A DNA stretch of 52,638 nt from Desulfobacterales bacterium (GTDB taxonomy: Bacteria; Desulfobacterota; Desulfobulbia; Desulfobulbales; VMSU01). The notes beneath the pieces are model-generated. The model was not told where the DNA came from. It saw nothing but the letters and a program-made list of their open reading frames with translations, and did not search any database. A program made the translations under genes and the position numbers. The DNA lies in contig DRPV01000292.1 in assembly GCA_011330685.1 (NCBI GenBank), positions 1 to 52,638 on the forward strand, given 5' to 3'. Of the stretch, positions 163-52,638 are shown in pieces (the stretch's first letter is position 1; each line of letters opens with the position of its first letter).

Positions 163-313
163 GTAACTATTCAGCGGGGGCAACAAATTCCCCTAAACTG
201 GTAGCCGTAACTGTTCAGCAGTGCTCCAGGTTTGTTCATTTAGGACTTTGAAGCATACTGTCGTATTCGAAAAGGCCTAAATGGACAAAGATGGGGTGCT
301 GCTGAATAGTTAC
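163..313 (+). mobile_element. MITE-like element, GTAAC subfamily, full length (151 bp)
   Basis: TIRs GTAACTATTCAGC / GCTGAATAGTTAC; internal end motif GTAACTGTTCAG at 207; degenerate 8-bp flanks AATGCCTT / AGTGCCTA. Confidence 0.85.
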
Positions 314-363
314 AGTGCCTAATTTATTTTCTGGAGGCATAAGAGAAAAGATTTTTATAACTG

Positions 364-2634
364 TTACATAGACTTCAGCACCTTAGCGGCATCTTGCCTC
401 TCAGGAAAGTCCTTTATTTTAAGGGCGGCTTTAAGTTCCTTACGGGCCTCATCAATTTTTCCCTGACCCTTGAGGGCCAGGGCCAGGTGATAGCGAAAGG
501 CTGGATTATCCGGGGCTGCAGCCACCGCTTGTCGCAACTGGCTGGCAGCCAAAACGTATGAATGACGCTGCAGATGAATCCAGCCCAGGGTATCGGCAAC
601 ACTTGGATTGTCGGGCCTGGCATTTTTGGCGATGAGTCCTAAACGCAGCGCCTCACCGAGATCCGGCTTCGGTTCATGACTGATAATCCAAGCCAAATTG
701 TTGGCCGCTTCCGGCAACTCAGGATTGAGTTTAAGGGCATGCTGATAGAGGGTCTTGGCCCCCTTTATATCTTTCTCATCCTCCAGGACAGACGCAAGAG
801 ACATAACAGCAGGCAGATAATCAGGATTCAAACGTAAATAGTCCTGATACATGACCGCCGACTCCCGGCTCCGTCCCTGGGATTTTAAAATAGAGGCCGC
901 CAGCATAAAGGCCCCGGCTCCCCGCGACCGCAGGGTACGTACCCTCTTACAAATGTCAAGGGCCTCGGAATATTTATGATTGACGGCCAGTAAATTGGCC
1001 AACAGCAATAAGTCACCGGGATTATCCGGCTGACTGCGCAACTGTTCACGCACCCTCGTTATGGCACCCGGCAAATCACCATCAGCGCTCATTATCCTGG
1101 CCACTCCGGCAAGAGCGCGGCTGTTCACGGGCTGCAGAGTTAAAATCTTCTCCAGCATTTCACGAGCCCTGGCCGGCTTCTTAAGCCCCAGATAGGTATC
1201 AGCAAGATTGGCATATATTTCGGTATTATCCGGCAGCATTTTAGACATTTTTTTGAACAACTTCAGAGCATTACGATATTCTTTCTTCCGGATCAGGGAC
1301 TGGCCTATAATTACGGCCGCCCGAAAGTCATATGGCTGCAGACGCAAAGCGACAGCAGCCTCTCTCGCTGCCCCGTCAAAATCGCGGCTTAACAAGTTAA
1401 GCTGGCCCAGCAGGGTATGGGCTCCGGCGAGACGAGGATCAGCCGCCACCGCCGCGGCCGCCTCTTTACGAGCCAGCTCCAGCTTACCCATACCGAAAAG
1501 GGCCATACCCTTTTGATAAAGAGCCTCGGCCATTCGCGGCTGCTCTTTAAGCAGGGCGTTCAAGATATCCAAAGCCTTTTGCCCCGAGTTGTCTTTAATC
1601 AACAACTTGGCCCGCACCAAACGGGCCAGGGGCTGTTTATTATCAACCTTTAAGACCTCGGCACTCTCCCGCGCCGCCTGTTTAAATTTATGGCGTTCAA
1701 AATGAAAATCGGCCAACGCCGCCTTGATACTCAACGATTTCGGATGCCTGTTCAAGGCCTGCGTCAAGGCGGCCTCGGCCTCTTTAAATTTGCCCTGATG
1801 TTTATAAAGAGCGGTGAGCAGGAGATCAAATTCAGTTTTGGCCGGGAAAGCCCTGCGGGCTGATTTAATACAGTCCTCAGCTTTACTCAGACGACCGGTC
1901 TCCATGTAGAGCGCGGCTAACATCATGTACGGCCTGCCTGATTTTTTAAAGATATCCCGCATAGCCTTGATCTGTTTCTCGGCCTTATCATACTGCTTGT
2001 TCCTCATATAGAAAATGGCCAGGGCCTGCTCAAAACCAAAATTATCCGGCTGTAGTTTAACGGCCCGTCTCAGGGCATTTTCAGCCTCGGCAGCCTTGCC
2101 GGCGGCCATTAAGACCCTGGCCTGAGTCAGATAGGCCCGGCCCAGGTCAGGCCGCGCGGTCAGGGCCTTGTTAATGGCGGCTTCAGCCCTGGGAATATTT
2201 TTGGCCAGAAGCTCAAGATTAGACAAAACGACAAGGGCCGGGGCATAATTAGGCTTGCGAGCCAGAATTTTGTTTATCCGGCTCCGGGATTCATCAATTT
2301 TATGACTTAGAAACAGGATTTCCGCGGTCTTGAGCTGGGCATCGAGGTTAGCCGGGTTCAAAGAAGCAGCCCGTGACAATTCCCTGAAGGCCTTACCTGG
2401 ATCATTAAGTTTGAGATACAAAAGCCCTAATTGATAACGGGCCGGGGCGTATTTAGGGGCAACTTGCGCCGCATTTTTAAACTCAATAACAGCCGCTTTA
2501 TCATCACCCTTTTTGAGGTAACTCATACCCCGTTCATAGGCCGCCTGTTTCTGCTTTTCCTTATTGGCACAGCTGACAACCAACAGGCACAGAGCCAGCA
2601 TAATTATCACATGCTTCCATATTTTATATTTCAT
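364..2634 (-). CDS. TPR-repeat lipoprotein, PrsT-like (PEP-CTERM/XrtA system)
   Basis: Lipobox VVSC; many TPR repeats; C-terminal NNLAW...DTLGW motif; GGAGG RBS before ATG at 2634; divergent from the EPS operon. Confidence 0.85.
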   Translation of the reverse strand: MKYKIWKHVIIMLALCLLVVSCANKEKQKQAAYERGMSYLKKGDDKAAVIEFKNAAQVAPKYAPARYQLGLLYLKLNDPGKAFRELSRAASLNPANLDAQLKTAEILFLSHKIDESRSRINKILARKPNYAPALVVLSNLELLAKNIPRAEAAINKALTARPDLGRAYLTQARVLMAAGKAAEAENALRRAVKLQPDNFGFEQALAIFYMRNKQYDKAEKQIKAMRDIFKKSGRPYMMLAALYMETGRLSKAEDCIKSARRAFPAKTEFDLLLTALYKHQGKFKEAEAALTQALNRHPKSLSIKAALADFHFERHKFKQAARESAEVLKVDNKQPLARLVRAKLLIKDNSGQKALDILNALLKEQPRMAEALYQKGMALFGMGKLELARKEAAAAVAADPRLAGAHTLLGQLNLLSRDFDGAAREAAVALRLQPYDFRAAVIIGQSLIRKKEYRNALKLFKKMSKMLPDNTEIYANLADTYLGLKKPARAREMLEKILTLQPVNSRALAGVARIMSADGDLPGAITRVREQLRSQPDNPGDLLLLANLLAVNHKYSEALDICKRVRTLRSRGAGAFMLAASILKSQGRSRESAVMYQDYLRLNPDYLPAVMSLASVLEDEKDIKGAKTLYQHALKLNPELPEAANNLAWIISHEPKPDLGEALRLGLIAKNARPDNPSVADTLGWIHLQRHSYVLAASQLRQAVAAAPDNPAFRYHLALALKGQGKIDEARKELKAALKIKDFPERQDAAKVLKSM

Positions 2635-3017
2635 CTTTACCTCCATTTTGACACCTAATAAAAAGTCTAATTTGCCACGATGACGTTATTCCTGTACCGA
2701 GAGTAATCCATTTGAATCAAATGATGATAGCTTGGAATATAGACTTAGCTCCGGCTCAAGCCCGGCTGCCCAGACATAACGGAAATAATCTGCCTGTAAT
2801 TACTGGTAAATTTTACTATAACCGTTTAATTACTATTGCATAAAAAAATAAAATTTTATAGTGTATTTATCAAATAGAAAGATATAATCCCCATATTGCC
2901 AGGTAAATTTTGTAATACCAGACCAGACATGAGCCCTCCTTTATGAGTTCTTTTAAAAATATCTCTAAATTTACGCTTTATATGGAAGATATCAGATACC
3001 TGAAAGCCACCTGCCAA

Positions 3018-3032
3018 TGGTATCGGCCTCGC
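3018..3032 (+). promoter_or_regulatory. Possible sigma54 (-24/-12) promoter for the EPS operon
   Basis: TGGTATCGGCCTCGC gives GG-N10-GC about 77 nt upstream of the wza-like ATG; imperfect -12 (TCGC instead of TTGC). Confidence 0.3.
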
Positions 3033-3108
3033 CGCGGCTTTCATTTTTCGTTGTGCCGGGGCAGCCGGGCATAGTCGTTACTGCCAACATACTACGGAGA
3101 CAGTTAAT

Positions 3109-3741
3109 ATGATCAACTACGCACTACCATTTAAACGAATACCACTATGTCATATATGGGCTCTGCTTGCGCTTATTTCCCTGTTTCCCTTAATGAATAC
3201 GGCCCAGGCCTCACCAAAGGCCATCAGCAGCAATGCCGCGTCTCCTGCCACTAAAGGCATGGAATATATAATCGGTCGGGGCGACCAGTTACAGGTTATG
3301 GTCTGGAAAGAAAAAGATCTATCACAAGCCATGAGTGTCCGCATCGACGGCCGCATCTCCCTGCCCCTGATTGGTGACGTAATGGCCGCCGGTAAGACCA
3401 TCAGCGGTCTGACTCATGAGCTGGAAAAACGTTTTGCCAGCGTGGTAACCGACCCCGCCGTCTCGGTCATGCTTATTCAAAGCAAAAGCTGGCGTTATTA
3501 CATCATCGGCAAGATAAATAAGCCTGGCGAGTTCCCCATTGATTTTCCCATCACCATTCTCCAGGCCATAGCCAAAAGCGGTGGCTTCACACAGTGGGCC
3601 AAGAGCGATAATATTTCTATTCTGCGCCAGACCAACGGCCATGATAAACTGCTTAAATTTAATTATGATGCCGTAACCAAAGGCAAGGATCTGGCCCAGA
3701 ATATTCAGATAAAACCAGGTGATACAATCATCGTTCCCTGA
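3109..3741 (+). CDS. Polysaccharide biosynthesis/export protein (Wza/OPX family, short form)
   Basis: YIIGRGDQLQVMVW...VRIDGRISLPLIGDV poly_export motif, SLBB domain, ends PGDTIIVP. Confidence 0.9.
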   Translation: MINYALPFKRIPLCHIWALLALISLFPLMNTAQASPKAISSNAASPATKGMEYIIGRGDQLQVMVWKEKDLSQAMSVRIDGRISLPLIGDVMAAGKTISGLTHELEKRFASVVTDPAVSVMLIQSKSWRYYIIGKINKPGEFPIDFPITILQAIAKSGGFTQWAKSDNISILRQTNGHDKLLKFNYDAVTKGKDLAQNIQIKPGDTIIVP

Positions 3742-3758
3742 AAAAAAGGTGAATCAAA

Positions 3759-5195
3759 ATGGCAAACAAAGAAAAAGTAATCCCAGCTCTTATTTTATGC
3801 GCTTTCATCTCCACAACCGCCGCGGCCCGGCAGACGACCTTTAACGGCAGTGTGGCCATTGGCAGCGACTATGATTCCAACGTCTTTCAGACCGACAACA
3901 ACCGTACCGATGAGTGGTTGAACACTCTTGAGACCAAGATGGCTCTTGAGTCCAAGGGGTCAGACAACCTGGTGAGCCTCTCATACAACCCTACCTTCAC
4001 CTATAACAACCGCCGTGAAACCACATCGAAAAGGCATGATTTGGACATGAAGGTTCAACGAGACATCTCTGAACGTTGGCAAATGACCCTGGACAACGCT
4101 TACTCCTATCGGGACAGTCCCAACTTTGAAAGTAATGCCGCTCTCTCCCTGGCCCGCCAGTTTCAAAGGGCCGACGATTTTACCCAAACAGAGGTTGTCC
4201 GTCTCCTCTTTCCGGAAATTGTCTGGGAACCACAGCAATTAACTTATGTCCTCTCCGACATATCGACCCGCTATCAACAGGCTACGACTCAAGATCAGAA
4301 TACTGTGCGTAATCTGCTGAATACCAACGACGGTCAAGGCCGCCAGCGCTATTTCACAAACGATCTCAGCCTGACCTCCATTTACAAATTCGCTGAAGAC
4401 AGCCAACTCGTTATGGGTTACAGCCTGAAGACGCTGGATAACAGAACCGGCATCCAGGCCGACAAAACCGGCCATAACCCCACCATTGATCTGACCTGGC
4501 GTCTCAATAAGTCATGGCTATTCGAGGGAGGATACAACTACAGCTACAAACATTTCGATACTACGGACAACAGCACCACCAATAACCCCCACCTCCGGGC
4601 CAGCTATAATTTTGCGGCAAACAACAAATTGACCGCCGGCTTTGATTATGAGGATATCACCTATGACGGCAATACCGCCTCCTCAACCAATCAGACGTTC
4701 TCGCTCTCCTGGGATAAAGGCTTAGATCGACTCACCACCATAGACAGCGGCCTGGATTTATCATATAATAATCGAGAAAGAGCCGGTGATGAACGAGAAC
4801 TGGCCGTGAGCCTGGGGATAACCCGCCGGATTGACCGTGGCAGCATCTCCGTAAGCGGCGACAGTTCATGGACGGCAAGCAATGGAACCGGCTCTTGGAA
4901 TGATCTCCGCCAGGCCTGGGGCTTGACGACTTCCGCTAATTATCAGTTTCGACAAGACCTTAATTCTACGGCCGACATCTCCTATGAACGCCGTTACGCC
5001 TGGGACAACCAAGGTAAAACCACCTATAACGATCTGAAGGCCGGGGCAGGTCTGAGCTGGAATTTTTACCGCTGGTTTTCTTTAGATCTCAATTATGATT
5101 ATAAATTATTAGACAGTGATTCTACATATCTCGACGATTACAATGAGCACTTGATTACCATCAAGTTATCCGCCGCCAACCAATGGCAACTGTAA
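3759..5195 (+). CDS. Outer-membrane beta-barrel associated with EPS export
   Basis: Signal peptide, YDSNV N-terminal motif, amphipathic Tyr/Asn-rich strands, located between the OPX and chain-length genes. Confidence 0.75.
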   Translation: MANKEKVIPALILCAFISTTAAARQTTFNGSVAIGSDYDSNVFQTDNNRTDEWLNTLETKMALESKGSDNLVSLSYNPTFTYNNRRETTSKRHDLDMKVQRDISERWQMTLDNAYSYRDSPNFESNAALSLARQFQRADDFTQTEVVRLLFPEIVWEPQQLTYVLSDISTRYQQATTQDQNTVRNLLNTNDGQGRQRYFTNDLSLTSIYKFAEDSQLVMGYSLKTLDNRTGIQADKTGHNPTIDLTWRLNKSWLFEGGYNYSYKHFDTTDNSTTNNPHLRASYNFAANNKLTAGFDYEDITYDGNTASSTNQTFSLSWDKGLDRLTTIDSGLDLSYNNRERAGDERELAVSLGITRRIDRGSISVSGDSSWTASNGTGSWNDLRQAWGLTTSANYQFRQDLNSTADISYERRYAWDNQGKTTYNDLKAGAGLSWNFYRWFSLDLNYDYKLLDSDSTYLDDYNEHLITIKLSAANQWQL

Positions 5196-5216
5196 CTCAC
5201 TACGGCCCCGGCAGAT

Positions 5217-5235
5217 TCATGCTATAATAGCATGA
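5217..5235. promoter_or_regulatory. Inverted repeat overlapping an extended -10 motif
   Basis: TCATGCTA-TAA-TAGCATGA contains TGcTATAAT, 36 nt before the 5272 ATG. Confidence 0.4.
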
Positions 5236-5271
5236 GCAACAACACGTCACTACACTCATAAAAGGAATTTT

Positions 5272-6897: not shown

Positions 6898-6926
6898 TTG
6901 TCCAGCCCCTTTCAGACCAGGCTATC

Positions 6927-7943: not shown

Positions 7944-7956
7944 AGGGAGAACAAAC

Positions 7957-12130: not shown

Positions 12131-12199
12131 GTAAGCGCTCCTGAAACGCTTACAGTTAGGGGGGGATATGAAGTTGGGTGTAGTTAATTGATTACTTAC
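12131..12199 (-). mobile_element. MITE-like element, GTAAG subfamily (69 bp)
   Basis: GTAAGCGCTCCTGAAACGCTTAC...ACTTAC; flanks TCATCGTA / TCATCGCA (7/8 TSD); homologous to 25615 and 30210. Confidence 0.8.
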
Positions 12200-13307: not shown

Positions 13308-13330
13308 GCAAGCGCCCCTGAAACGCTTAG
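13308..13330. repeat. Remnant of GTAAG-subfamily element
   Basis: GCAAGCGCCCCTGAAACGCTTAG vs consensus GTAAGCGCTCCTGAAACGCTTAC. Confidence 0.65.
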
Positions 13331-13407
13331 ACCCCGGCGGATGATCACCTGCCACTGTGATTTATTGATCGTTTGCCCATTTAATAGACAAAAAATAAAA
13401 AAATAAA

Positions 13408-14719: not shown

Positions 14720-14772
14720 CTAACCGTTCAGGAAAGCGAAGACTCCGAGATGGGGTGCAGGTGAACGATTAC
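14720..14772 (+). repeat. Short internal unit of GTAAC-subfamily element
   Basis: TAACCGTTCAGGAAAGCGAAGACTCCGAGATGGGGTGCAGGTGAACGATTAC; matches the reverse complements of 28099 and 37532. Confidence 0.75.
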
Positions 14773-16312: not shown

Positions 16313-16500
16313 CCGACGATAAACCATCTTCATGCCCATATTTCTCTAACAACGCTGATTGCCTGATGATCAACGACGGTATTTATATCCCCTTACCGCA
16401 GCATATCAAGATGTTTTGCCAGCGTAGTTCATTCCGCAAATGCCATCATTATATTAATGGCTGCAAGCCTGGCGATCCGGTACGGCATGAAGAACATTAA
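16309..16500 (+). CDS. Small Cys-rich hypothetical protein (63 aa)
   Basis: ATGA overlap with the activator stop; C-x8-C-x18-C-x7-C-x6-C pattern. Confidence 0.6.
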   Translation: MTDDKPSSCPYFSNNADCLMINDGIYIPLPQHIKMFCQRSSFRKCHHYINGCKPGDPVRHEEH

Positions 16501-16552
16501 GCACTTCATGAACACCGCCCTGCACACGTTCCAACCCCGCGATGCAGCTTAA

Positions 16553-17756: not shown

Positions 17757-17780
17757 GTAACTATTCAGCTGCACCCCATT
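17757..17780 (-). repeat. Solo end of GTAAC-subfamily element
   Basis: GTAACTATTCAGCTGCACCCCATT, nearly identical to the ends at 27119 and 28099. Confidence 0.7.
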
Positions 17781-17829
17781 TTATAGCGTTATTATGAGCC
17801 GGTATCAACTTATAACCGGTTAATCAACC

Positions 17830-19714: not shown

Positions 19715-19781
19715 GTAAGCGCTCCTGAAACGCTTGCCCTCGGAGGACTATTTTTAGAGCGTGGTTTATTGTAAACGCTCA
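19715..19781 (-). repeat. Degenerate GTAAG-subfamily element
   Basis: GTAAGCGCTCCTGAAACGCTTGC followed by GTGGTTTATTG...CGCTC, resembling the far end of the 30210 copy. Confidence 0.6.
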
Positions 19782-19829
19782 ATAAACACATAGAGTACTA
19801 TATTAGATTGCGGCAGGCCAAATAAAATG

Positions 19830-25614: not shown

Positions 25615-25680
25615 GTAAGCAATCAATTAACCACACCCAACTTCATATCCCCTAACTGTAAGCATTTCAGGAGCGCTTAC
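25615..25680 (+). mobile_element. MITE-like element, GTAAG subfamily (opposite orientation)
   Basis: GTAAGCAATCAATTAACC...GTAAGCATTTCAGGAGCGCTTAC is the reverse complement of the 12131 and 30210 copies; no clear TSD. Confidence 0.78.
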
Positions 25681-27118: not shown

Positions 27119-27304
27119 GTAACTGTTCAGCTGCACCCCATCTTCGTCCGTTTCGCCCTCCTCACGTACAAAAAGTACGCTTCGGAGGTCGAAACGAACG
27201 AGGTAAGCGAAGACTCCGAGCTGGGGCACATCCGGAGTCTTCGCTTTCCTGAGCAGTTACGGTTGCGAGTTTAGGGGATTTTATTGCCCCTACTGAATAG
27301 TTAC
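27119..27304 (-). mobile_element. MITE-like element, GTAAC subfamily, longest copy (186 bp)
   Basis: TIRs GTAACTGTTCAG / CTGAATAGTTAC; perfect 8-bp TSD AACGATCA; internal end motif ending at 27260. Confidence 0.92.
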
Positions 27305-28098: not shown

Positions 28099-28195
28099 GT
28101 AACTGTTCAGCTGCACCCCATCTTGGAGTCTGCGCTTTCTTGAGCAGTTACGGTTGCGAGTTTAGGGGGATTTTTTGCCCCTATTGAATAGTTAC
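28099..28195 (-). mobile_element. MITE-like element, GTAAC subfamily (97 bp, no cargo hairpin)
   Basis: GTAACTGTTCAG / TTGAATAGTTAC; perfect 8-bp TSD GGAAATCA; internal end motif ending at 28151. Confidence 0.9.
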
Positions 28196-28307: not shown

Positions 28308-28336
28308 TTGACGCCTCCCATATTTTTGTCGATATT
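28308..28336 (+). promoter_or_regulatory. Possible sigma70 promoter of the histidine kinase gene
   Basis: TTGACG-N17-GATATT. Confidence 0.35.
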
Positions 28337-28425
28337 CAGAGGTCAGAAGACAGAAATCAGTATAGTTAGCGCCTGCGGCGGTTAAAACTAAGGACTGCGG
28401 ACTATTCTATTCTGTTTTCATTGTT

Positions 28426-28489
28426 CGAAGTCTGCGCTATCCGAAGTCTACGCTATCCGAAGTCTACGCTATCCGAAGTCTACGCTATC
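28426..28489 (+). repeat. Tandem repeat, 4 x 16 bp
   Basis: CGAAGTCT(G/A)CGCTATC x4 with no spacers. Confidence 0.95.
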
Positions 28490-28530
28490 TGCAATGCCTG
28501 AATAATCGGGCATAAAGGTTACCAAAAAGT

Positions 28531-30209: not shown

Positions 30210-30278
30210 GTAAGCGCTCCTGAAACGCTTACAGTTAAGGGGTTACATGAACTTGAGTGTGGTTAATTGATCGCTTAC
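30210..30278 (-). mobile_element. MITE-like element, GTAAG subfamily (69 bp)
   Basis: GTAAGCG...CGCTTAC ends; perfect 8-bp TSD CCTTAGAG. Confidence 0.9.
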
Positions 30279-34119: not shown

Positions 34120-34169
34120 CTAACTATTCAGTAGGGGCACCCCCCTAAACTTGTATAACCGTAAGTTAC
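34120..34169 (+). repeat. Internally deleted GTAAC-subfamily element
   Basis: TAACTATTCAGTAGGGGCACCCCCTAAACTTGTATAACCGTAAGTTAC. Confidence 0.7.
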
Positions 34170-35884: not shown

Positions 35885-37323
35885 AGCGGAGTTAGATGCT
35901 GCAGAAACCAGGGAAAATCACCATAGATAAAAAGCAGAGCCGCCGCTCCGCCCGCCGTCCACTGCCACCAGCGGGGCATCCGGTACAACAGGCCATGAGC
36001 GAGAATTATATATAATGGGGCCAGAACCGGGAAGATATAACGGCCGGTAATGGCCAGGCCCACCATTCCCGTCTGGCTGTAGATACCATAATTCACCATC
36101 TGCATCAGGATGGTGATATAAAACAGGGTGATAAAGAGCGGCGGCCCAAGACCAGGGGGAACGCCCGGCCGCCACCGCCAACAGAACAGGGCCGCAGCCA
36201 GAATAAAAAAGGCATAGTACAGCCTGATGAGACCTGGTTTTTTATACATGGAAAGCTGAGCGGCGACACCATAGGTGCGGGCAAACATATACCTGAGCCA
36301 GGAACGACTGTAAGAGAGCCGGCTCATGGGAGCCGATGGCTGGGCATTCCCGGCCCGCCGGGCCTCAAGGAGCATATTCAGGGCATCGGCCCGGTCGGCA
36401 GGATTCCTTATCCCCAGGGCAAGACGTTGGGCAGCAAGCCAGTCCAGACGGCCATTTTTGAATTCCCGCACCACATACCCTCTGGTAAACAAACGATTTT
36501 GCAGACAGGCATTCAGGGGCAAAACCATATTCATGGTCGGCAGTAATTGGCCGAAACGCAGCAGATTGCCGAGATAAAGGTTGAGGTTCAAGGCCAGCAG
36601 GGTCAAGAGTGCCAGCAGTTTAAGCCAGTTAAGCCAGGAATGGGCGCGCAGACCGCCCGCAATGACCGCGAAAAGAGTTTTCCACTCCCGAGCCGCCAAT
36701 ATAATTACCATGGCCGCGGCATAGGGAAGAAAGACATTTTTGGTCATGGTTCCGGCCAGGGTGAGAACCGCCCAGCCAATAAGGTCGTTATAACCATGCT
36801 CTCTAAAAAAACGGCTCAGATAATAAAGGGAAGTAACAGCCAGCAGGGTGGAAAGGTTATCATAATTCACCGCCCCATAGATAAAGGTCAGCATCATGGT
36901 GCTGGTCATCATTACCATAAAGAGCAGACGCACCGCCGAACTGTCCACAAGCAGAGTTATCAGCCGCCAGGCAAAAAAAATGGCTGTCAGACCAAGAGCA
37001 ACATTGACAAGGCGCAAAAATATAAGATCCGTAAGGGGAAAGACATTTAGGTGCAGAAGCCGCCCCATGAGCCAAAAATAGAGATCAGGTATATGGGTAA
37101 TAAGACCAAGATGATATGAGGCCGCGGAATCGGAGGGCGGCAGAAGGTTAGCGGAGAACAGGCGGCTGATACCGAACCAGGTTGATTCATCGGGAAATAC
37201 TCCCCGGCCGATATTAACCGCCAGCCAGGCGGTTTTAATTCCAAAGCAGACAAAGAGCAGCAAGAAGACAAACTGCTCGCCTCTATGTAGACGGGGCTGA
37301 ATACTTGAGTGGGGAACCCGCAT
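35872..37323 (-). CDS. Polytopic membrane protein, probable GT-C glycosyltransferase
   Basis: PDE after TM1, VNYDNL, GRYIFP motifs; many TM segments. Confidence 0.65.
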   Translation of the reverse strand: MRVPHSSIQPRLHRGEQFVFLLLFVCFGIKTAWLAVNIGRGVFPDESTWFGISRLFSANLLPPSDSAASYHLGLITHIPDLYFWLMGRLLHLNVFPLTDLIFLRLVNVALGLTAIFFAWRLITLLVDSSAVRLLFMVMMTSTMMLTFIYGAVNYDNLSTLLAVTSLYYLSRFFREHGYNDLIGWAVLTLAGTMTKNVFLPYAAAMVIILAAREWKTLFAVIAGGLRAHSWLNWLKLLALLTLLALNLNLYLGNLLRFGQLLPTMNMVLPLNACLQNRLFTRGYVVREFKNGRLDWLAAQRLALGIRNPADRADALNMLLEARRAGNAQPSAPMSRLSYSRSWLRYMFARTYGVAAQLSMYKKPGLIRLYYAFFILAAALFCWRWRPGVPPGLGPPLFITLFYITILMQMVNYGIYSQTGMVGLAITGRYIFPVLAPLYIILAHGLLYRMPRWWQWTAGGAAALLFIYGDFPWFLQHLTPLWLG

Positions 37324-37531: not shown

Positions 37532-37584
37532 GTAACCATTCAGCTGCACTCCATCTCGGAGTCTACGCTTTCCTGAACAGTTAC
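37532..37584 (-). repeat. Short internal unit of GTAAC-subfamily element
   Basis: GTAACCATTCAGCTGCACTCCATCTCGGAGTCTACGCTTTCCTGAACAGTTAC. Confidence 0.8.
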
Positions 37585-42672: not shown

Positions 42673-43905
42673 TTATTGGCAGTTATGCAGCATTTTCAGA
42701 CGCCGGGTGATACTGAGCCGCAGATTTCCCGTGTGTTCCTCCGGCACCCGGCAGGCGGTAAAAACCTCCGGCCAGGTGGCCAGCCGGGCCGCCACCTCGG
42801 TTAGAATCCTGCCGCAGCGCTGCTTAGAGAGACCAAATTTTCTCCCTTCCCGCAAAATATCATCACGATTCAGGGCCTGATGCTTACCATTGACCAGTAG
42901 AATCTGCTCCCCCTGATATATATTGGGCACAATATCATAGGCCGGCGACAGACGCCAGCCTTGCCTGGTATGGAGCATGGCAAAATTCTGCAGATGATCA
43001 TCGGTGTTAACCAGGGCAATATTGACAATCATCTGTCGATAAAGCCCCTCAAGATCATCCTTGGGGCGATGAGAGAAACGGCTGACAATCCCGGCCAAGT
43101 CGGCATATGAGACGCTGTAATGATCCTCCACCCCAATAAGGGTTCTGAAACTCACCAGGGCGTTCCGGCCCTTCGTCGGCGTTACGTCAAAACGACGGAT
43201 AAGGAGAATATCCCGACCGGCCGCCCTCTCCCGCCTTATTTCAGGTACTTCCAACCCGGCTCTACGGGCCAGAATAAGCCCGGCCTCCTCTAAGGCCACA
43301 AATAATTCCGGGTGCGGATCCTGACGACTGGTAAATTTGGCCAGCCACAGATCGTCATCAAGAATTGTCAGAACCTTGGGCCTGGCCCCGCCGGCCGAAC
43401 TGCCACAGGCCAGTAAATGACGCAGTTCGGCGTTATCAACGGCAATGGAATCCTCCAGGGCCGACGCCTCAGTAATTGCCTTGGCAATATCGGCGAAATC
43501 AATACTGCCGCCAACCGACGTAGGCGGCACCTCACTTTCAGAGAACAATAAACGGCCCAGGCCGCTGCCACCGAGAGCAAGAAGCAGATGAGCCGGAGCG
43601 TATGGCGGCTCCAGACCGCCTTTGCGAGCCAGGATATGGCGTCCCCAGGCATCGGGCAGAGAATCATCAAAGACCTCCGGCATGCCAAGTTCACGGTTGA
43701 CCGCAGTAAACACACCGTTATCCAAAGGCAGATGCACCGGATCCAGAGGATAGGCCAGGGGATTCCGAAGATACGCCTCGTCATAACGGAAAAAGCCCTC
43801 ATAATTACCGCGATTATACAGATTCCGCGACAACAAACGGCCCACCAACACGATCCGGCCGTCGGTAAAAAGGGCATGGACGTATAGATTTACCTCGGCC
43901 TTCAT
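42673..43905 (-). CDS. hipA: HipA-family Ser/Thr kinase toxin
   Basis: N-terminal couple domain (DSLPDAWGR), GSSAGGARPK, RRFD, NTDDHLQNF, LSPAYDI. Confidence 0.92.
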   Translation of the reverse strand: MKAEVNLYVHALFTDGRIVLVGRLLSRNLYNRGNYEGFFRYDEAYLRNPLAYPLDPVHLPLDNGVFTAVNRELGMPEVFDDSLPDAWGRHILARKGGLEPPYAPAHLLLALGGSGLGRLLFSESEVPPTSVGGSIDFADIAKAITEASALEDSIAVDNAELRHLLACGSSAGGARPKVLTILDDDLWLAKFTSRQDPHPELFVALEEAGLILARRAGLEVPEIRRERAAGRDILLIRRFDVTPTKGRNALVSFRTLIGVEDHYSVSYADLAGIVSRFSHRPKDDLEGLYRQMIVNIALVNTDDHLQNFAMLHTRQGWRLSPAYDIVPNIYQGEQILLVNGKHQALNRDDILREGRKFGLSKQRCGRILTEVAARLATWPEVFTACRVPEEHTGNLRLSITRRLKMLHNCQ

Positions 43906-44213
43906 CTTTTGCGAACCCGTGTTTTCCGCAGCTTAGTTAACTGCCGCTGCTTTTTATCGTATTCCGCGAATGGGTCTGGCGGAATAACCAGGGCCTGTTT
44001 CCAGGTATCCAACAGCCCCAGAACCGCACTGACCCTGATCCATTTACCAAGAGCCACAGATGATTCCCCCCGCTCCATCCGGGCCAGCAGCTGCCGTGAT
44101 ACACCGGCCCTGGCCCCCAGATCTTCCTGGGTCTCCCGCCTCTCAATCCGGGCCTTCCGCAACCGCAGTCCCAATTCCCGGAAAAAATCCTTTTCATCTT
44201 GATTAAAGTCCAT
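43902..44213 (-). CDS. XRE-family HTH antitoxin (HipB-like)
   Basis: LRKARIERRETQEDLGARAGVSRQLLARMERG HTH; ATGA overlap with hipA. Confidence 0.88.
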   Translation of the reverse strand: MDFNQDEKDFFRELGLRLRKARIERRETQEDLGARAGVSRQLLARMERGESSVALGKWIRVSAVLGLLDTWKQALVIPPDPFAEYDKKQRQLTKLRKTRVRKR

Positions 44214-44304: not shown

Positions 44305-44457
44305 GTAACCGTTCAGCCAAGGCAACAAATTGCCCTTAACTGTGAGCTGTAACCGTTCAGATGTGCTCCAGGTTCGTTTGTTTTGGCCACCGAGTCTGTA
44401 CACCCCGTACGTGAGGTGGACAAAACGGACGAAAATGGGGTGCAGCTGAACGGTTAC
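44305..44457 (+). mobile_element. MITE-like element, GTAAC subfamily (153 bp)
   Basis: Perfect TIRs GTAACCGTTCAGC / GCTGAACGGTTAC; perfect 8-bp TSD AGTTGTGC; internal end motif at 44349. Confidence 0.93.
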
Positions 44458-45581: not shown

Positions 45582-46437
45582 TTTTTAACTCTGCCAGCAT
45601 TTTTTTTAGATTAAGCCGCCAGTGCGGAGCAGCAACGCCAAATTTTTCCCACAGGATGGTCTTATCCAATACCGAATAAGGCGGCCGCCGAGCCAGGGTG
45701 GGATAATCCTCGCTACGCAGAGGCCTGATAACCGCCTCCCGCCTTAGAATGCCCAGCCTCAGCGCCTCTTCCTGGATGGCGCAGGCGAAATCGTACCAGG
45801 AAGCCACTCCGGCATCCGTCCAATGATAGATTCCAGTCAGTTTTTCAGCCGCCAGCTGCCAGAGGGCCTGAGCCAGACCAGCGGCCCAGGTGGGGCTGCC
45901 GATCTGATCGGCCACAACCCCCAGTTCATCACGCTCGGCCATCAGGCGAAGCATGGTTTTGACAAAATTATTACCATGGGCTGAATAGACCCAGGCCGTG
46001 CGTATAATGGCGGCATCCGGGCATTTCTCAAGCAACATCCGCTCCCCGGCCAGCTTACTCTCCCCATAAATCCCAGTGGGATGTGGGGTGTCCTCGGGCA
46101 GATAGGGGCGGTAATGACAGCCGTCAAAAACAAAATCCGTCGAGACATGAATGACCCCGGCCCCAACAGCCCCGGCCGCGGCAGCCAAATGCGCCACCCC
46201 GTCCCGGTTAACGGCCATGGCTCGTTCCGCCTCATTCTCGGCCTTATCCACCGCCGTATAGGCCGCGGCGTTAATTATTATCTCCGGGCTCAAGCGGCTT
46301 ACAACCTCATCCACCAACCCCCCGTTGGTAATATCAAGCTCCGCCGAATTACAGGTCGTAAGCTCAACTCCCCCCGGCACCACACGCCGCAACTCCCAGC
46401 CTAACTGACCGTCAGCCCCTGTGATTAAGATTTTCAT
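45574..46437 (-). CDS. rfbD: dTDP-4-dehydrorhamnose reductase
   Basis: GADGQLG, NAAAYTAVD.AE, STDFVFDG, YGESK; start at MKILITG. Confidence 0.96.
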   Translation of the reverse strand: MKILITGADGQLGWELRRVVPGGVELTTCNSAELDITNGGLVDEVVSRLSPEIIINAAAYTAVDKAENEAERAMAVNRDGVAHLAAAAGAVGAGVIHVSTDFVFDGCHYRPYLPEDTPHPTGIYGESKLAGERMLLEKCPDAAIIRTAWVYSAHGNNFVKTMLRLMAERDELGVVADQIGSPTWAAGLAQALWQLAAEKLTGIYHWTDAGVASWYDFACAIQEEALRLGILRREAVIRPLRSEDYPTLARRPPYSVLDKTILWEKFGVAAPHWRLNLKKMLAELKNV

Positions 46438-46762
46438 TTTTTGCTTGTGCTGTATGTTCAATATCTCTGGACAGAGATAAATATTCCGAAAGGATCAAGA
46501 ATGCCACATAGCGCGTCATCCCTGGTGAACAATTATGATTCCGACCTGTTACCTGACGACCCCCAAAGGGAGTCGTCTTATTTTTGCGACATTCAATTCA
46601 AGGAGAGAATGATTTTCGCAAATAACGCGAAAAAAATCAGGCAACAAAAAGCCTTCTGGCGACAAAGAATCAACCAAAGACCACCGCAACCAGGCAACGC
46701 TTGCTCTGGCACACAAATTGACTGCCTATGTGCCGGCAATTTTATATTACATAAAACCATCG

Positions 46763-46818
46763 GTAACTATTCAGCGGGGGCAATAAATCCCCCTGAACCG
46801 GCAGCCGTAACTGCTCAG
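46763..46818 (+). repeat. Truncated GTAAC-subfamily element (doubled end only)
   Basis: GTAACTATTCAG at 46763 and GTAACTGCTCAG at 46807; close to 163-218. Confidence 0.8.
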
Positions 46819-46845
46819 CATGACTTTTCCTGATGTCTTGTTTGT

Positions 46846-48507
46846 TTACTGAGCAGCCGGCTTCTGGCTGGAACGACTTCGGAGCTGAAGCGGGAAAGTC
46901 AATACCGTGGAGGTGGCATCGCTTAAGATATTAATTCCGCCGCTGCGCATAATTACCCCCACATAAAGATTAACCGTACCGGCTGAATTCTTATTCTTAG
47001 AGCCGGCGGCTGGTTTTTTAATCGGCCCAAGCTGGTAATCGGCAATATAGCCGTCAATTTTTCTGGTACGCCAAAGTTCAGTAAGGCCTATGCCGTTCCA
47101 GGCCAGGGCATAAATTTCACCGCTGGGATAACTCTTAAGTTTACCCATGATTCGGGAGGCGGAAGACAGATTTCTGTTAATAATTATATCGGGATGCCCG
47201 TCATTATTCACATCACGAACAATTATACGGGCCGGAACATATATCCTGGGCGGCTCATAGGAACCATTTTCCAGATCTTTGTTTATATCATCAAACCCGA
47301 CACCACCGAGATAGGTAGTGGTACCGCCATAATAATCATCACTGACCCACATAACCTTACCGCTGGGACGTAGAACAAGTATTTTATCACCATGACTGAT
47401 AGCCACCACCTCGTTACGGCCGTCACCATCCAGGTCGGCTATGGAAAAATCGAAAAGATTGACCCCATTGACCGGCACCATACCGGCCTTGACAAGCTGG
47501 CCCTTTTTTAGTTTAAGGCGGTAAATGCCGGGAGCAAGCAGAGTTTGAAAACCTCCTTTCTGACCGGCCAGCACCCGCCCCTCACCAGGAATATTAATCG
47601 CCCTTATATACCATCTCTGATTTTCGGCCAGCTTCACAAAATTCTTACCATCCCACTCCAGGATAAAAGAGTTGGGTCGTTTGGCATCTGCGGCACTGAC
47701 GTATATTTCCTGCCGGCCGTTTTTATTTAGATCAGCCATGGTTATGGCGTGAATGGCATAACGTTCAGAGGTCGACATCTGCCATATTTTCTGAAAACGA
47801 TTGCCCTGTCGGCGGTATATTCTGATCTCATGTTTGGCCGCCAGGACAAATTCAGATTTACCATCGCCGTCAACATCGCCAACATCCATAGCCACCAGAC
47901 CAAAACGAAAGTTCTGACTCTTTGAAAATCCAAAGGCCCCGGTAATTACCCCCCGAGGCCGCAGGATATTACCGCCGTAACCACCCTGAAGACCAGCCCG
48001 AAAGGCAAGTTCAGGATTGGCAGTCTGGTAGGGAGAAGCGGCAGCAGCAGGGGCCGCAATTGCCGCAACCCGAGGAGCGGGAGCGCCAGAAGCGGCGGCC
48101 GGTCTCTTTTTGCCAAAGACCTTCGCGGCAATATCCCAGCTCAGAGAATCAACCGCCTTTATAATTCCGCCCTCTGTGGCGGCGGTGGCATAGAATTTCC
48201 TGCCCTGACCGCCCTGGACGGAGGTCAAGGTAACGTCAAGCGAATAACTGCCGCCAAAGACCGTCATACTGCCCTTCAAGGTATAATCGGCCCCAGCCTT
48301 CGTGGGTACTATATTTACCCCGGCGTTGTCAGCGAGACGACTGGCCAGCATTGACCTTATCCCGCTTTTTAAATATGACATATCTTTAGCGGCATTAATG
48401 GTAAACGGCTTAATGACTACCGTTGGCGGAGCCGCCAGCACCGGGATGGCAAAGGAGATGATCAGAACGGCAAGGACATAAATCTGCAGAAATCGTTTAG
48501 AATTCAT
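46846..48507 (-). CDS. Exported FG-GAP/VCBS repeat protein
   Basis: Signal peptide; DVDGDG, DLNKNG, DLDGDG, DVNNDG repeats; TolB-N/CsgG-like N-terminal domain. Confidence 0.82.
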   Translation of the reverse strand: MNSKRFLQIYVLAVLIISFAIPVLAAPPTVVIKPFTINAAKDMSYLKSGIRSMLASRLADNAGVNIVPTKAGADYTLKGSMTVFGGSYSLDVTLTSVQGGQGRKFYATAATEGGIIKAVDSLSWDIAAKVFGKKRPAAASGAPAPRVAAIAAPAAAASPYQTANPELAFRAGLQGGYGGNILRPRGVITGAFGFSKSQNFRFGLVAMDVGDVDGDGKSEFVLAAKHEIRIYRRQGNRFQKIWQMSTSERYAIHAITMADLNKNGRQEIYVSAADAKRPNSFILEWDGKNFVKLAENQRWYIRAINIPGEGRVLAGQKGGFQTLLAPGIYRLKLKKGQLVKAGMVPVNGVNLFDFSIADLDGDGRNEVVAISHGDKILVLRPSGKVMWVSDDYYGGTTTYLGGVGFDDINKDLENGSYEPPRIYVPARIIVRDVNNDGHPDIIINRNLSSASRIMGKLKSYPSGEIYALAWNGIGLTELWRTRKIDGYIADYQLGPIKKPAAGSKNKNSAGTVNLYVGVIMRSGGINILSDATSTVLTFPLQLRSRSSQKPAAQ

Positions 48508-48667
48508 AGTATTATTCTGGTTGTGGTTAACTTTAAAGCAAAAAGACCATTTATGGACAGACACTAACTACGTATTAGCAAATAAACTATTTTACTGCAC
48601 TTGGCAACCAGACAGATCAAATATCCTTTTTTAAACGCCATAAACCTTGACTTGGGTTCAAAACAAG

Positions 48668-48853
48668 ATGACCAGAATAGAAATCGACAAAGACCTGTAT
48701 AAACAACTTCAGGACTGCTCAGTGCCTGCCGGATTTTCTTCCGTTGATGATTTTATTATCCACATTCTGAAAAAAGAAGTCGCCATTTATGAGAATGTCG
48801 ATGATGACCCAAACATCATGGAGCGGCTCAAGGAGTTAGGCTCTATCGCCTGA
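48668..48853 (+). CDS. Small hypothetical protein, ribbon-helix-helix-like
   Basis: RIEIDKDLY..L....GFSSVDDFI.HIL...ERLKELG pattern. Confidence 0.55.
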   Translation: MTRIEIDKDLYKQLQDCSVPAGFSSVDDFIIHILKKEVAIYENVDDDPNIMERLKELGSIA

Positions 48854-48884
48854 ATGAGAATATACCGAAGATCTGCCGAGATAC

Positions 48885-48921
48885 TACAACGCAGTAGATC
48901 GGACTTTTTACGACGTCATCA
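48885..48921. repeat. Possible fragment of a second interspersed repeat family
   Basis: CTACAACGCAGTAGATCGGACTTTTTACGACGTCATCA resembles repeat ends I recall from Desulfobulbales genomes; single copy here, unverified. Confidence 0.35.
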
Positions 48922-48993
48922 TTCTTAATACGCAACGCTAATGTTTGTTCCCTCCCGCCCTGATGGTTATCCCTCATGCTGCCTTATTTAGTC

Positions 48994-49021
48994 TTGCAAT
49001 TACCAGTTTTTTAGTTATAAT
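48994..49021 (+). promoter_or_regulatory. Probable sigma70 promoter of the multiheme cytochrome gene
   Basis: TTGCAA-N16-TATAAT, 78 nt before the ATG. Confidence 0.5.
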
Positions 49022-49099
49022 TCATGGTTAAATACGAACACCACAAATGAACAAATTATAAAATTACTCGTAATATTACACACTTAACGGAGAAGTGAA

Positions 49100-51757
49100 A
49101 TGAAAAAGGTTATCTGCCTGATTAACGTGCTAATTTTCTTTGCTCTCTGCAGTTATGCCGCGGCCTCGGTTATTGATTCTCCTCACAATGAGACCCACGG
49201 CATTAGTTGCGGCGACTGCCATACCTACTCCCTGTGGTGGCAATATTCACCAGCGGCCAATAACAGCACTACCCCTTATTCATCCATTACCGCCGCCGTC
49301 TGTAATAAATGTCACGGTGAGGGAGGTTACGCCCCCAACAAAGTCACCCATTCCGCCGCCTCCATGGGTGCCATGCATGACAAAAATCTCGGTGACTGGT
49401 CAACTAACTGCGTTGACTGCCATGATCCGCATTTCCAAGAGCAGCTCGGCTGGCTGTCCACTGACGAGGCTGCCCTCTATTTAGTAAACGGCAGCATTGA
49501 TCCCGGCTCTATTCAGGTTAATACCACCGCCAATACCACCACCTTTACCTATAACAACGCCGATTCATCCACCTTCTGGAGCGATCCCGCCAACTGGGGA
49601 GCAAAAACCTCCAATGGCCGGGGCCTGATTCTGGTGTTGAGCAAGGACAACCCAGGCAACACCTATGAAATAAACAGCGCCGTACAGACTACCGCTATTA
49701 CCCCCGGTACCCCAGGCGGCACCGGATCAATAACGGTACAGGGTATAATCCCCAGCAGTTATGACGGCAGCACCTTCGGTGTTATTTACGGCCAGTTAAT
49801 TAAGAAGACCATTACCACCCCCAGGCTGGATGCCAAAAACAACAAAATCAAAATGGATGTTAAGTTCTTCGATCCTGACATAACTTACGCCTCCGGAGAG
49901 GTCGGCGGTCTGGCTGATGGTTCCGGTCTGCCGCCCAAGGGTATCTGCCAGGTCTGTCATGCCTCGACCAAATATTATAATTACGACGGCCTGCAGCCCG
50001 ACCCGACAGATCCCAACTATCCCAACGGAGCCAGAATAGCAGTCAGCAAGCACTACAAAACCAAATGCACCGCCTGCCATATAACCCTGCTTGGTTTCAA
50101 GCCCTCATATCCGAATCATAACGTCTTTATTTCCGGCACGGGAACCAGCTGTGTCCATTGTCATAATGCCACTGATATTATCGCCGATACCCATAAATTT
50201 CACTGCGGAGACTGCCACTATCCCGGCCCGCCTACTCTGATTTCGCCCTTCCCCAGCCCCAAATGGCCCACCCCCGCGGGGGCCACCCGCAAAACCGGTA
50301 CCTGTTACGATTGCCACAGCGGTATAGCGGCTGATTTTACATCTCACCCCAACGCCCTTGATCATACCGGCCATGTGGATCCCAATCCCAGATGTACCGG
50401 ATGCCATTTCCACAGCAATAAAAACGTGATTACCGGCATTCATGTCACCAAGGTCTGTGCCACCTGCCACAACCTGACCTATGATGCCGCCACCGGTAAA
50501 TACACCGGCGATGGTGTCCTCATCAGCCTGGCAGCCCAGCACGGCCCCGGCGACTGCACCAATTGCCATACGGATATAGCCGCCAATTTCTTCGCCCATC
50601 CCACTTCCGGAGATCATACCGGTCTGGTGACAGCCACGACGCAATGCGCGGTCTGTCATACCGGCGATCCGGTAAAGAGCGTCCACAACAGTAACTGCGG
50701 CATGTGCCATGCCAACAAAACAGGTCTGCTCTACGGAGTTGCCAAAACCAACGGCCCCGGCGACTGCCTTAATTGCCATTCCACTTACAGTGATTTTGCC
50801 AGCCACACCCCGCCCCCGCACACAAGCCAGGTCAGCGCGGATGCCGCCTGTGTGAACTGCCATTCTAACCCGGATCTGGTTAGTGGTATTCATGGCCGTA
50901 ACGGCTGCGCCACCTGCCATGACAGCAAAGGGGTATTAGTCGGCTCCGCCACCGGCCATAGCGACGGCGGCAATTGCTCGGTTTGTCACAGCACCGAAGC
51001 CGCTGATCTGAGCGGGGGTACTCATCCCGCCACCAGCCACTCTAATACCACCGTTACCTCCATGGTTGACAGCAGCTGTGTGACCTGCCACGGCGGAGAT
51101 ACGGTTTCCATCGTCCACAACAACAATTGTTTAGACTGCCATGTGGCCTTGAATTCCACCCAGATTCACACCCTGAAGGGCAGCGCCGCCGGCCGGGAGG
51201 GCAATACGACCAATACCTGTGTTGACTGCCACACGGCCATTGCCGTCAGTTTCAACAATCACAACGCCTGGTCTCACAGTGTGCGGGTCAGCAGTACCGG
51301 TACCAGCTGCGCCTCCTGTCATCCCGGCGATCCCATCTTCACCATTCATCAGAAAAACGGCTATTGCGTTGACTGCCATGACAGCAATGACTGGCGACTC
51401 ATTGGCAGCGCCGCCGGCAAAGGAACCGGCAAACCAGCGGTCAAAGGTAATAACTGCATGGACTGCCATGGTGGTTTTCCGCTCCACGACTCCTTGAGCA
51501 TTGACTTAAGCCACTCAACCCAGGTCACAGCCACCCCGACATGTATCACCTCCGGGTGCCACGATCAGGTATCCGATCTCGGGGCAAATATTTACGTGGG
51601 TTCTAACAGCGTCCACGCCTCAGATACTTACGCGGGCACCGACAGCTGCGCGGCCTGCCACCTCGAGGACGGCAGCCTGAATCCACCGGCAATAGCAGGC
51701 GGCGGTGACTGCAAGACCTGTCATAGTGATGCCAAATACGACAACACGCCACATTAA
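49100..51757 (+). CDS. Exported multiheme c-type cytochrome (25 CxxCH + 1 CxxxxCH)
   Basis: Signal peptide; heme motifs counted by hand from the translation; GGAG RBS. Confidence 0.95.
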   Translation: MKKVICLINVLIFFALCSYAAASVIDSPHNETHGISCGDCHTYSLWWQYSPAANNSTTPYSSITAAVCNKCHGEGGYAPNKVTHSAASMGAMHDKNLGDWSTNCVDCHDPHFQEQLGWLSTDEAALYLVNGSIDPGSIQVNTTANTTTFTYNNADSSTFWSDPANWGAKTSNGRGLILVLSKDNPGNTYEINSAVQTTAITPGTPGGTGSITVQGIIPSSYDGSTFGVIYGQLIKKTITTPRLDAKNNKIKMDVKFFDPDITYASGEVGGLADGSGLPPKGICQVCHASTKYYNYDGLQPDPTDPNYPNGARIAVSKHYKTKCTACHITLLGFKPSYPNHNVFISGTGTSCVHCHNATDIIADTHKFHCGDCHYPGPPTLISPFPSPKWPTPAGATRKTGTCYDCHSGIAADFTSHPNALDHTGHVDPNPRCTGCHFHSNKNVITGIHVTKVCATCHNLTYDAATGKYTGDGVLISLAAQHGPGDCTNCHTDIAANFFAHPTSGDHTGLVTATTQCAVCHTGDPVKSVHNSNCGMCHANKTGLLYGVAKTNGPGDCLNCHSTYSDFASHTPPPHTSQVSADAACVNCHSNPDLVSGIHGRNGCATCHDSKGVLVGSATGHSDGGNCSVCHSTEAADLSGGTHPATSHSNTTVTSMVDSSCVTCHGGDTVSIVHNNNCLDCHVALNSTQIHTLKGSAAGREGNTTNTCVDCHTAIAVSFNNHNAWSHSVRVSSTGTSCASCHPGDPIFTIHQKNGYCVDCHDSNDWRLIGSAAGKGTGKPAVKGNNCMDCHGGFPLHDSLSIDLSHSTQVTATPTCITSGCHDQVSDLGANIYVGSNSVHASDTYAGTDSCAACHLEDGSLNPPAIAGGGDCKTCHSDAKYDNTPH

Positions 51758-51784
51758 ACAACAATCTTAAAACTCACAAATCAG

Positions 51785-51821
51785 AACCGGCCATGCTTAA
51801 GCAAGCATGGCCGGTTTTTTT
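51785..51821 (+). terminator. Intrinsic terminator after the cytochrome gene
   Basis: AACCGGCCATGCTT-AAGC-AAGCATGGCCGGTT followed by a T-run. Confidence 0.9.
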
Positions 51822-51871
51822 ATTTTTATTGATCACCACTCAATAGAAATCCTAAACTGATAAAAGTTTTT

Positions 51872-51900
51872 TTGACAATTTCCATCCAACTCCTTATGAT
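51872..51900 (+). promoter_or_regulatory. Near-consensus sigma70 promoter
   Basis: TTGACA-N17-TATGAT. Confidence 0.7.
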
Positions 51901-51938
51901 TCAGAAGAATGCTCAAAAAACCAACAGGGGAGGAAATT

Positions 51939-52484
51939 ATGCAGGAAACCGGCTACCTTAAGGAAAACAAAAAGGTTCTTGAACTGCTTAAAAGAATTAA
52001 AAAATTCCAAGCATTTTCCGATGACGACATAGAGGCCTTTCTTGAGGTAGGTAAATTAAAATCCTATGAGGCCGGAGAGACTATTATAAGCAAAGGTGAC
52101 AAGGATCAATGGGTTTATTTTCTGATTTCCGGGCAGGTAAAAATTGTCAAGGGTGAAAAGACCTTCGCGGTCTTAGAGGGCGGCGGCGACCTCTTTGGAG
52201 AAATGGGGGTCATTGACGGCGCCCCACGCTCGGCCAGCGTCTGGGCTCTGGCCAGAACAATGGTCTTAGGGCTGGATTGCAGTAATCTTGACCAGAGACT
52301 CAAAGACAATGCCAGGGTGTTTCAATATGCCGTATTCAGACTCTTCGCCGAAACCCTAGCCGAACGTCTACGGCAGACCGATGAAGAATTGTTAAAACTC
52401 CAGACCGAATTAAAGAAGAAGGATAAACTAATCGCCCAATTAAAAAAATCCGGCGGTCTGGAAGACGAAACTATCTGGGTGTAG
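51939..52484 (+). CDS. Cyclic-nucleotide-binding domain protein without HTH
   Basis: GDLFGEMGVIDGAPRSASV phosphate-binding cassette; coiled-coil tail; GGAGG RBS before ATG 51939. Confidence 0.88.
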   Translation: MQETGYLKENKKVLELLKRIKKFQAFSDDDIEAFLEVGKLKSYEAGETIISKGDKDQWVYFLISGQVKIVKGEKTFAVLEGGGDLFGEMGVIDGAPRSASVWALARTMVLGLDCSNLDQRLKDNARVFQYAVFRLFAETLAERLRQTDEELLKLQTELKKKDKLIAQLKKSGGLEDETIWV

Positions 52485-52494
52485 CCCCCTTTTC

Positions 52495-52638
52495 GTAACC
52501 GTTCAGCCAAGGCAACAAATTGCCCTTAACTGTGAGCTGTAACCGTTCAGATGTGCTCCAGGTTCGTTCGTTTTGGCCACCGAGTCTGTACACCCCGTAC
52601 GTGAGGTGGACAAAACGGACGAAAATGGGGTGCAGCTG
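52495..52638 (+). mobile_element. MITE-like element, GTAAC subfamily, cut by the window end
   Basis: Identical to 44305-44448 except one T/C difference over 144 bp. Confidence 0.93.

Follow-up and report, generated by a model that had tools for sequence, protein, structure and literature searches.

Putative IS66-type miniature elements with a conserved three-ended design in a Desulfobacterales bacterium

What kind of mobile element has filled the intergenic spaces of contig DRPV01000292.1 of a Desulfobacterales bacterium (assembly GCA_011330685.1) with short, related repeats, and which enzyme moved them? The window studied here is this whole contig, C292, with 52,638 nucleotides; the assembly, G000, comprises 2.89 Mb in 330 contigs and is 95.5% complete. 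Labels such as G000 and G008 denote genomes, L004 and L039 denote loci, and C129 and C286 denote contigs of G000. A preliminary description of the window listed about 15 related copies or remnants in two subfamilies and interpreted them as MITEs (miniature inverted-repeat transposable elements) whose movement in trans was ascribed to a DDE transposase encoded outside the window, without assigning them to a known insertion sequence (IS) family. We found that the elements are real gene-less mobile DNA, polymorphic between strains, that their ends and target duplications match IS66, and that they contain a third, inner terminal repeat, located 44-47 bp inside one end, which is absent from the preliminary description.

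A full or decayed end motif is present at 15/15 of the coordinates listed earlier. The end motifs rank as the commonest GTAA-led 12-mers in G000, and profile searches identified 212 loci of type A, with ends GTAACYRTTCAG, and 147 loci of type B, with ends GTAAGCG…AACC, which together account for 42.5 kb (1.5%) of the assembly. Of the oriented copies, 3/303 are located within a crudely called open reading frame (ORF), and there is no ORF inside the elements. Being short and ORF-less, with terminal inverted repeats and many dispersed copies, they have the properties of MITEs.

The evidence for transposition comes from target sites. For pairs of same-type ends separated by at most 400 bp, we detected an exact 8-bp duplication in 110/588 cases in G000, versus 0.55 with permuted flanks. 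The spectrum of lengths has a single peak, at 8 bp (there are 1, 1, 1, 4 and 0 exact duplications of 5, 6, 7, 9 and 10 bp, respectively), and the 110 duplicated targets represent 107 different sequences, with 70% A+T. In the window, the four perfect duplications reported earlier are present (27119-27304, 28099-28195, 30210-30278 and 44305-44457), together with the two degenerate ones (163-313, two mismatches; 12131-12199, one mismatch). Precise empty sites, proposed earlier as a check, were found at two of these positions. The element at 28099 is missing from 4/4 aligned congeneric orthologues, a single GGAAATCA being retained in 2/4, and in vent-metagenome contigs from two runs, with ~98% similarity, exactly 105 bp (97+8) are missing at this site. 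Similarly, a vent-metagenome contig from one run, ~98% alike, skips exactly 77 bp (69+8) at 30210; this comparison with read contigs covered the window up to position 37000. Orthologues of the tolQ-tolR and 44305 loci also have no elements, at a divergence too high to reveal a single target copy. The copy at 25615 has a 15-base longer allele in vent-metagenome contigs, which indicates that cores alter their length in place. The duplications, the empty sites and the lack of a transposase between the ends bear out the original interpretation, namely MITEs whose movement depends on a DDE enzyme acting in trans.

The family can now be named, contrary to the preliminary description: both the ends and the duplication length match IS66, and types A and B are very probably IS66-type MITEs driven by IS66 transposases. 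In the host order, for which 401 genomes from 17 families were covered, a strong match to PF03050 was found in 123/401 genomes. We examined 70 IS66 loci of the order; an end pair was obtained for 51, of which 29 were credible by eye, and 15/29 of these have an exact 8-bp duplication. Proteins of these loci pass the NCBIfam cut-offs for NF033517 (IS66 transposase), TnpA and TnpB. The ~1.7-kb single-ORF elements begin with GTAACTATTCAGC or GTAACCATTCAGC, like type A, and a 2.4-kb two-ORF element from the same family as G000 begins with GTAACTGTTCAG; the ~2.4-kb three-gene elements, including one in the same genus (L004), begin with GTAAGCG…AACC, like type B. A B-like 23-base end pattern produced 129 metagenome matches in 122 loci; 72/129 matches have an IS66 ORF within 2.6 kb, and some of the IS66-linked ends are identical to the type B outer end across 18 bases. 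One genome (G128) contains ~96 doubled ends plus a single-ORF IS66 element with GTAACTATTCAGC at both ends. Published sources are in agreement: they report IS66 ends GTAAGCG with 8-bp repeats (PMC11946415), matching IS66 ends (PMC12888890), a table entry of 8-bp repeats for IS66 (PMC3281130), and the end GTAACTGCTCAGCA with an 8-bp repeat for ISDge4 of the ISBst12 group, a name that we use for single-ORF members (PMC12898284).

Several variants of IS66 elements were also recorded. Loci L027 and L269-L274 are two-ORF IS66-like elements in which the upstream ORF encodes ~290-310 amino acids, without an NCBIfam name in L027; the ends of L027 are of the GTAAC type, and its flanks carry an 8-bp duplication. 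At L262:141 (G313), the end GTAAGCGTTCAC is followed by an A-type core arm beside an IS66 ORF, a possible hybrid of A and B ends. The MITEs themselves were absent from the 72,556 plasmids searched, and one viral match is not the element.

The preliminary description noted that the two subfamilies share an architecture, and this architecture is more specific than was claimed. Representing each unit in the direction from left to right, we define two parts: (i) a leader, which opens with a terminal repeat and has a length of 44-45 bp in type A and 46-47 bp in type B; and (ii) a hairpin core between two further repeats, with a length of 107-109 bp in type A and 105-108 bp in type B. The total is ~153 bp for both types. 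Of the IS66 end, the inner repeat of type B retains just the initial portion. When copies flanked by a duplication (at most one mismatch) were considered, 117/143 were called three-ended, and an extra end on both sides was found in 0/143; the leader as an independently inserting module was rejected, as it occurs at both ends in 0/143.

The outer and right repeats are the ones used. For three-ended type A copies that were not preselected on duplication, the exact duplication is associated with the outer end in 60/104 cases and with the inner end in 2/104, both being mis-parses of neighbouring elements; the corresponding numbers for type B are 23/41 and 0/41. In loci from other genomes, they are 53/91 and 0/91, and in the loci of an all-species scan, a set overlapping the previous one, 56/86 and 0. 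Reading by eye from the right end, we found the leader in 19/21 duplication-flanked copies of G008 and in 11/11 of G016; the script tally was 18 and 7, respectively, with a further 9 and 12 ends without duplication. The length of the leader is constant at 43-48 bp despite sequence divergence, even across several leader types within one genome, and the period of doubled ends in five genomes was 41-49 in 389 cases, versus 6 at 13-40 and 5 at 50-80.

The doubled A end is found in 88/401 genomes and 11/17 families of the order. In genomes of the phylum outside the order it was detected in 1/387, where it is an unrelated tandem repeat. The all-species scan (7/64 parts) produced 122 loci; titles were listed for 80 of them, and the majority refer to Desulfobulbales groups or to unplaced Deltaproteobacteria, which makes Desulfobulbales the likely identity of the order, while two are clearly from other taxa. 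Type B is present in 5/251 genomes, four of them from this genus. Two further arrangements should be mentioned. At G000:C129:1212-1431, a complete A element is nested within a B element, with a near-exact duplication around the whole. In the tolQ-tolR spacer of G002 (L039), a different leader-like insert is located at the tolQ stop codon, and the native sequence there resembles a terminal repeat.

The core has complementary arms and is predicted to fold as a hairpin. Among 29 distinct cores, pairing holds for 95% of the cells, double changes are found in 25/43 pairs, and the covariation exceeds that of all 500 shuffles and of slid controls; it should be noted that the pairing figures are inflated by related sequences and by the use of a structure predicted from these same sequences. 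The differences between the arms depend on the strand. Using a strand-neutral arm alignment, we compared, for the leader-first strand, the number of differences of the G·U type with that of the A·C type and obtained ratios of 217:43 for other genomes, 165:7 for type A and 157:14 for type B; with 16 divergent representatives, and with the invariant tandem wobble excluded, the ratio is 53:11. The leader-first strand folds better in 102/102 distinct cores. DNA folding parameters favour the same strand, so that RNA and single-stranded DNA are indistinguishable here. Selection in host mRNA was rejected as a cause of the wobble bias: for copies between co-oriented genes (crude gene calls), the sense strand is the one that folds better in 26 versus 38 cases for type A (p 0.17) and in 20 versus 48 for type B (p 0.0009). 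Replication-strand counts, with contig-based GC skew as the guide, are 55 versus 74 for type A and 43 versus 37 for type B. Both selection for the fold and strand-biased mutation fit the bias, and under either of them the leader-first strand would therefore be single at times. A replication-fork context is plausible, as IS66 proteins are reported to have sliding-clamp motifs, together with a weak tendency toward the leading strand (PMC3971601); this shows nothing about the elements described here. A comparison with Rfam 15 at the gathering score produced 0 matches in the window, and the elements in 12 loci produced just one sub-threshold hairpin match.

Length variation and recent amplification are unevenly distributed among the forms. 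A 17-bp unit of the type GGTAAGCG-N-AGACTCCG occupies, or is missing from, four or five fixed places of the A core (the labels of sites 3 and 4 overlap, and these sites were not counted apart), which produces elements of 170, 187 and 204 bp. The unit is found in every leader subtype and in other genomes; there are 267 matches in G000, 181 of them in or next to catalogued loci, and 15 in a shuffled genome. It behaves like a tiny mobile or convertible module, and longer variants with GCGAAGC-type inserts were observed in other genomes. Cyanobacterial small dispersed repeats (SDR) are similar in that units of 16-17 bp are present or absent at fixed positions, and also occur in tandem; the difference is in the host. 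The short forms look like products of deletion, either from unit to unit, from one side of the hairpin to the other, or from one of the two direct repeats to the other. Near-identical siblings were found for 21/36 full-length and 14/44 long A copies, and for 0/10 short copies; of the leaderless A copies, 2/17 have siblings with reverse-complementary flanks, and this pair is likely to be one locus assembled twice. As only full-length forms show recent amplification, the leader-bearing form is likely to be the mobile form and the leader is likely to be required for mobility, whereas short, leaderless and collapsed copies are likely to be decay products that arose in place.

How might these features be connected? 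We suggest that IS66 transposases likely act in trans on the outermost two of the three terminal repeats; judging from sequence, mobilization by such a putative driver is likely. Type A would likely be moved by a single-ORF ISBst12-like enzyme or another GTAAC-ended one, and type B by a three-gene IS66 element. The leader would be the working left end, retained since leaderless elements do not spread. The most likely role, at somewhat less than an even chance, is geometric: the leader would provide an end that is not part of the palindrome, plus the length and bend for bringing two ends together, and the inner repeat would serve the fold. The A tracts of the leader are spaced by ~ten bases, which fits a bend. 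The inner repeat would mainly pair with the right end whenever the leader-first strand is single-stranded, in fork DNA or in RNA. Decay in place would proceed by slippage from one direct repeat to the other, across the hairpin, or from one 17-bp unit to another. A stronger version of this model, in which the mobile form needs both a leader of fixed length and a strand-specific hairpin because of a single-stranded or RNA-linked step of IS66 transposition, and in which the design was kept across a switch of ends between two IS66 groups, is unlikely, and an obligatory single-stranded intermediate is, if anything, slightly less likely.

Several observations weigh against the interpretation of IS66-driven elements with a required leader. 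G000 contains no IS66 transposase or remnant detectable with PF03050, PF13005 and PF05717 or by tblastn with the IS66 proteins of relatives; the fragmented, incomplete assembly may have lost the partner transposase. The match of type A to autonomous elements spans 12-14 bases only, the inner repeat and leader are found in no autonomous IS66 element examined (order loci and metagenome loci), and core-only copies account for ~8/107 duplication-flanked A copies in G000 and 2/21 in G008, so the core could move alone at times. Near-identical siblings were found for 0/22 full-length type B copies; type B is older, and the amplification argument thus rests on type A. Related searches gave the following results. 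Among 3694 end pairs of G000 located 0.4-8 kb apart, 0 have an exact duplication, and uncatalogued ends near contig ends form no IS-like cluster. Comparison with 30 IS66 loci showed no homology past the 13-18 terminal bases, unlike what is expected for internal-deletion derivatives. No leader was seen at parental IS66 ends, the 11 metagenome loci flagged as "inner" being contig-end artefacts.

An alternative that keeps the IS66 MITE identity is that the design is a frozen accident: a single old composite, formed when a palindromic element was captured 44 bp within another left end, would have spread across the order, and the covariation and wobble bias would result from template-switch correction and strand-biased C-to-T change, not from selection. 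A single origin is plausible because leaders share a loose pattern that is common across genomes; template switching perfects palindromes without selection, and copies and genomes are related, so that the counts are not independent. Conversely, the leader has kept its length, and doubled ends their period, while the sequence diverged; the leader is located between direct repeats, from where it should be easily lost; and type B has the same dimensions with a different sequence. We regard this explanation as somewhat unlikely. Another possibility is that the leader is a promoter which starts a hairpin RNA of ~108 nt at the inner repeat, with the RNA serving the upkeep of the element. The strand that such a promoter would make is the better-folding one in all the distinct cores and is not preferentially the host mRNA strand, and a TAAACT/TATAAC-like hexamer is located 8-16 bases upstream of the inner repeat, with a junction that is mostly CT|G. 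This hexamer is weakly conserved, however (the first base is T in 43% and the last is T in 37% of 143 leaders), there is no good -35 box at the proper distance, a consensus scan found no promoter in the 44305 leader, and there is no Rfam match, which makes a promoter improbable.

It is highly improbable that the elements are REPIN-like, i.e., single-stranded hairpins with a 5' tail moved by a RAYT (Y1) transposase. The hairpin, the compensatory changes and the 5' tail do resemble the putative REPIN intermediate (PMC3116915), and G000 has 4 Y1_Tnp matches. Three of these are complete Y1 genes that have different repeats alongside and no A or B element within ~1.5 kb; the fourth is a 22-codon fragment ~375 bp from one element copy. 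No cognate RAYT flanked by A or B repeats was found in G000, and RAYT mobilization was rejected. A DDE enzyme is indicated instead by the fixed length of the 8-bp duplications (107 sequences in 110 cases) and by the IS66-type ends. As a separate observation, the RAYT-like Y1 genes are located on C286, C310 and C269 of G000, and two of them have short repeats of their own, unrelated to A and B. IS66-driven transposition continues to be the explanation that we consider most likely.

The copies in the window are as follows. The canonical type A element (44305-44457, +, 153 bp; leader 44305-44348, core 44349-44457) is flanked by the exact duplication AGTTGTGC and has eight matches in G000 at 89-99%, seven of them at least 97%; one copy with 99% identity to it is truncated by the contig end (52495-52638, +). 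Other A elements with leaders are those at 163-313 (+, 151 bp; leader 163-206, core 207-313), at 27119-27304 in the tolQ-tolR spacer (-, 186 bp; leader 27261-27304; 17-bp units inserted into the core, 27119-27260; flanked by the exact duplication AACGATCA), and at 28099-28195 (-, 97 bp; leader 28152-28195 and a collapsed core; exact duplication GGAAATCA). Type A is further represented by a leader plus inner repeat alone (46763-46818, +), a decayed leader (34120-34168, +), a solitary right end (17757-17782, -), and two collapsed cores with one 17-bp unit each and no duplication (14720-14772, +, without a leader; 37532-37584, -). Type B copies have collapsed cores at 12131-12199 (-, 69 bp), at 13308-13376 (-, decayed), at 25615-25680 (+, 66 bp, without duplication) and at 30210-30278 (-, 69 bp, with a leader and the exact duplication CCTTAGAG; the empty site is from a near-identical strain). 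A decayed B remnant is located at 19715-19785 (-, far boundary approximate), and a B right-end remnant at 16498-16544 (-) is missing from the earlier list.

The window also contains a member (28330-28525, -) of a third, older dispersed repeat of ~130-190 bp with ~24 copies and without IS66-type inverted ends; at 28410-28490 it includes 4-5 tandem copies of a 16-17-bp variant of the 17-bp unit, and 7-bp tandem repeats follow 28330-28525. The last 32 codons of an ISAzo13-family transposase (PF07592) are found at the contig start (3-101, +), 60 bp from the first A element, a HipA/HipB-like pair (42673-44213) adjoins the element at 44305, and positions 49100-51757 hold a gene for a large multiheme cytochrome c.

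The IS66 identity of the ends and the 8-bp footprint are already known; what is new is the conserved three-ended design, with a fixed-length leader and a hairpin core that is predicted to fold better on one strand. The literature searched, which did not extend to ISfinder, subscription papers or supplements and was partly seen in excerpts, contains no description of the element. Members of the ISBst12 group such as ISDge4 share the ends GTAACYRYTCAG and the 8-bp target duplication (PMC12898284), whereas type A is ORF-less, has a length of ~153 bp and possesses the inner repeat and hairpin core. The classical three-gene IS66 elements (tnpA, tnpB, tnpC) share with type B the GTAAGCG…AACC ends and the 8-bp duplication (PMC11946415), whereas type B is ORF-less and its inner repeat is only the first part of an IS66 end. 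REPINs, too, are non-autonomous hairpins that abound between genes and show compensatory changes, with a putative 5'-tailed intermediate (PMC3116915), whereas A and B elements have IS66-type ends, fixed 8-bp duplications and no tie to the Y1/RAYT-like genes of G000.

As IS66 MITEs, these elements are ordinary selfish DNA, though abundant and strain-polymorphic. IS66 transposition has been called insufficiently characterized (PMC12898284). A substrate of 153 bp with natural variants (leader lost, core collapsed, units added, two groups of IS66 ends) allows tests of which ends, spacing and structure the IS66 enzyme requires. If true, a requirement for the leader and the strand-specific hairpin would reveal that IS66 transposition includes a step that is single-stranded or linked to RNA.

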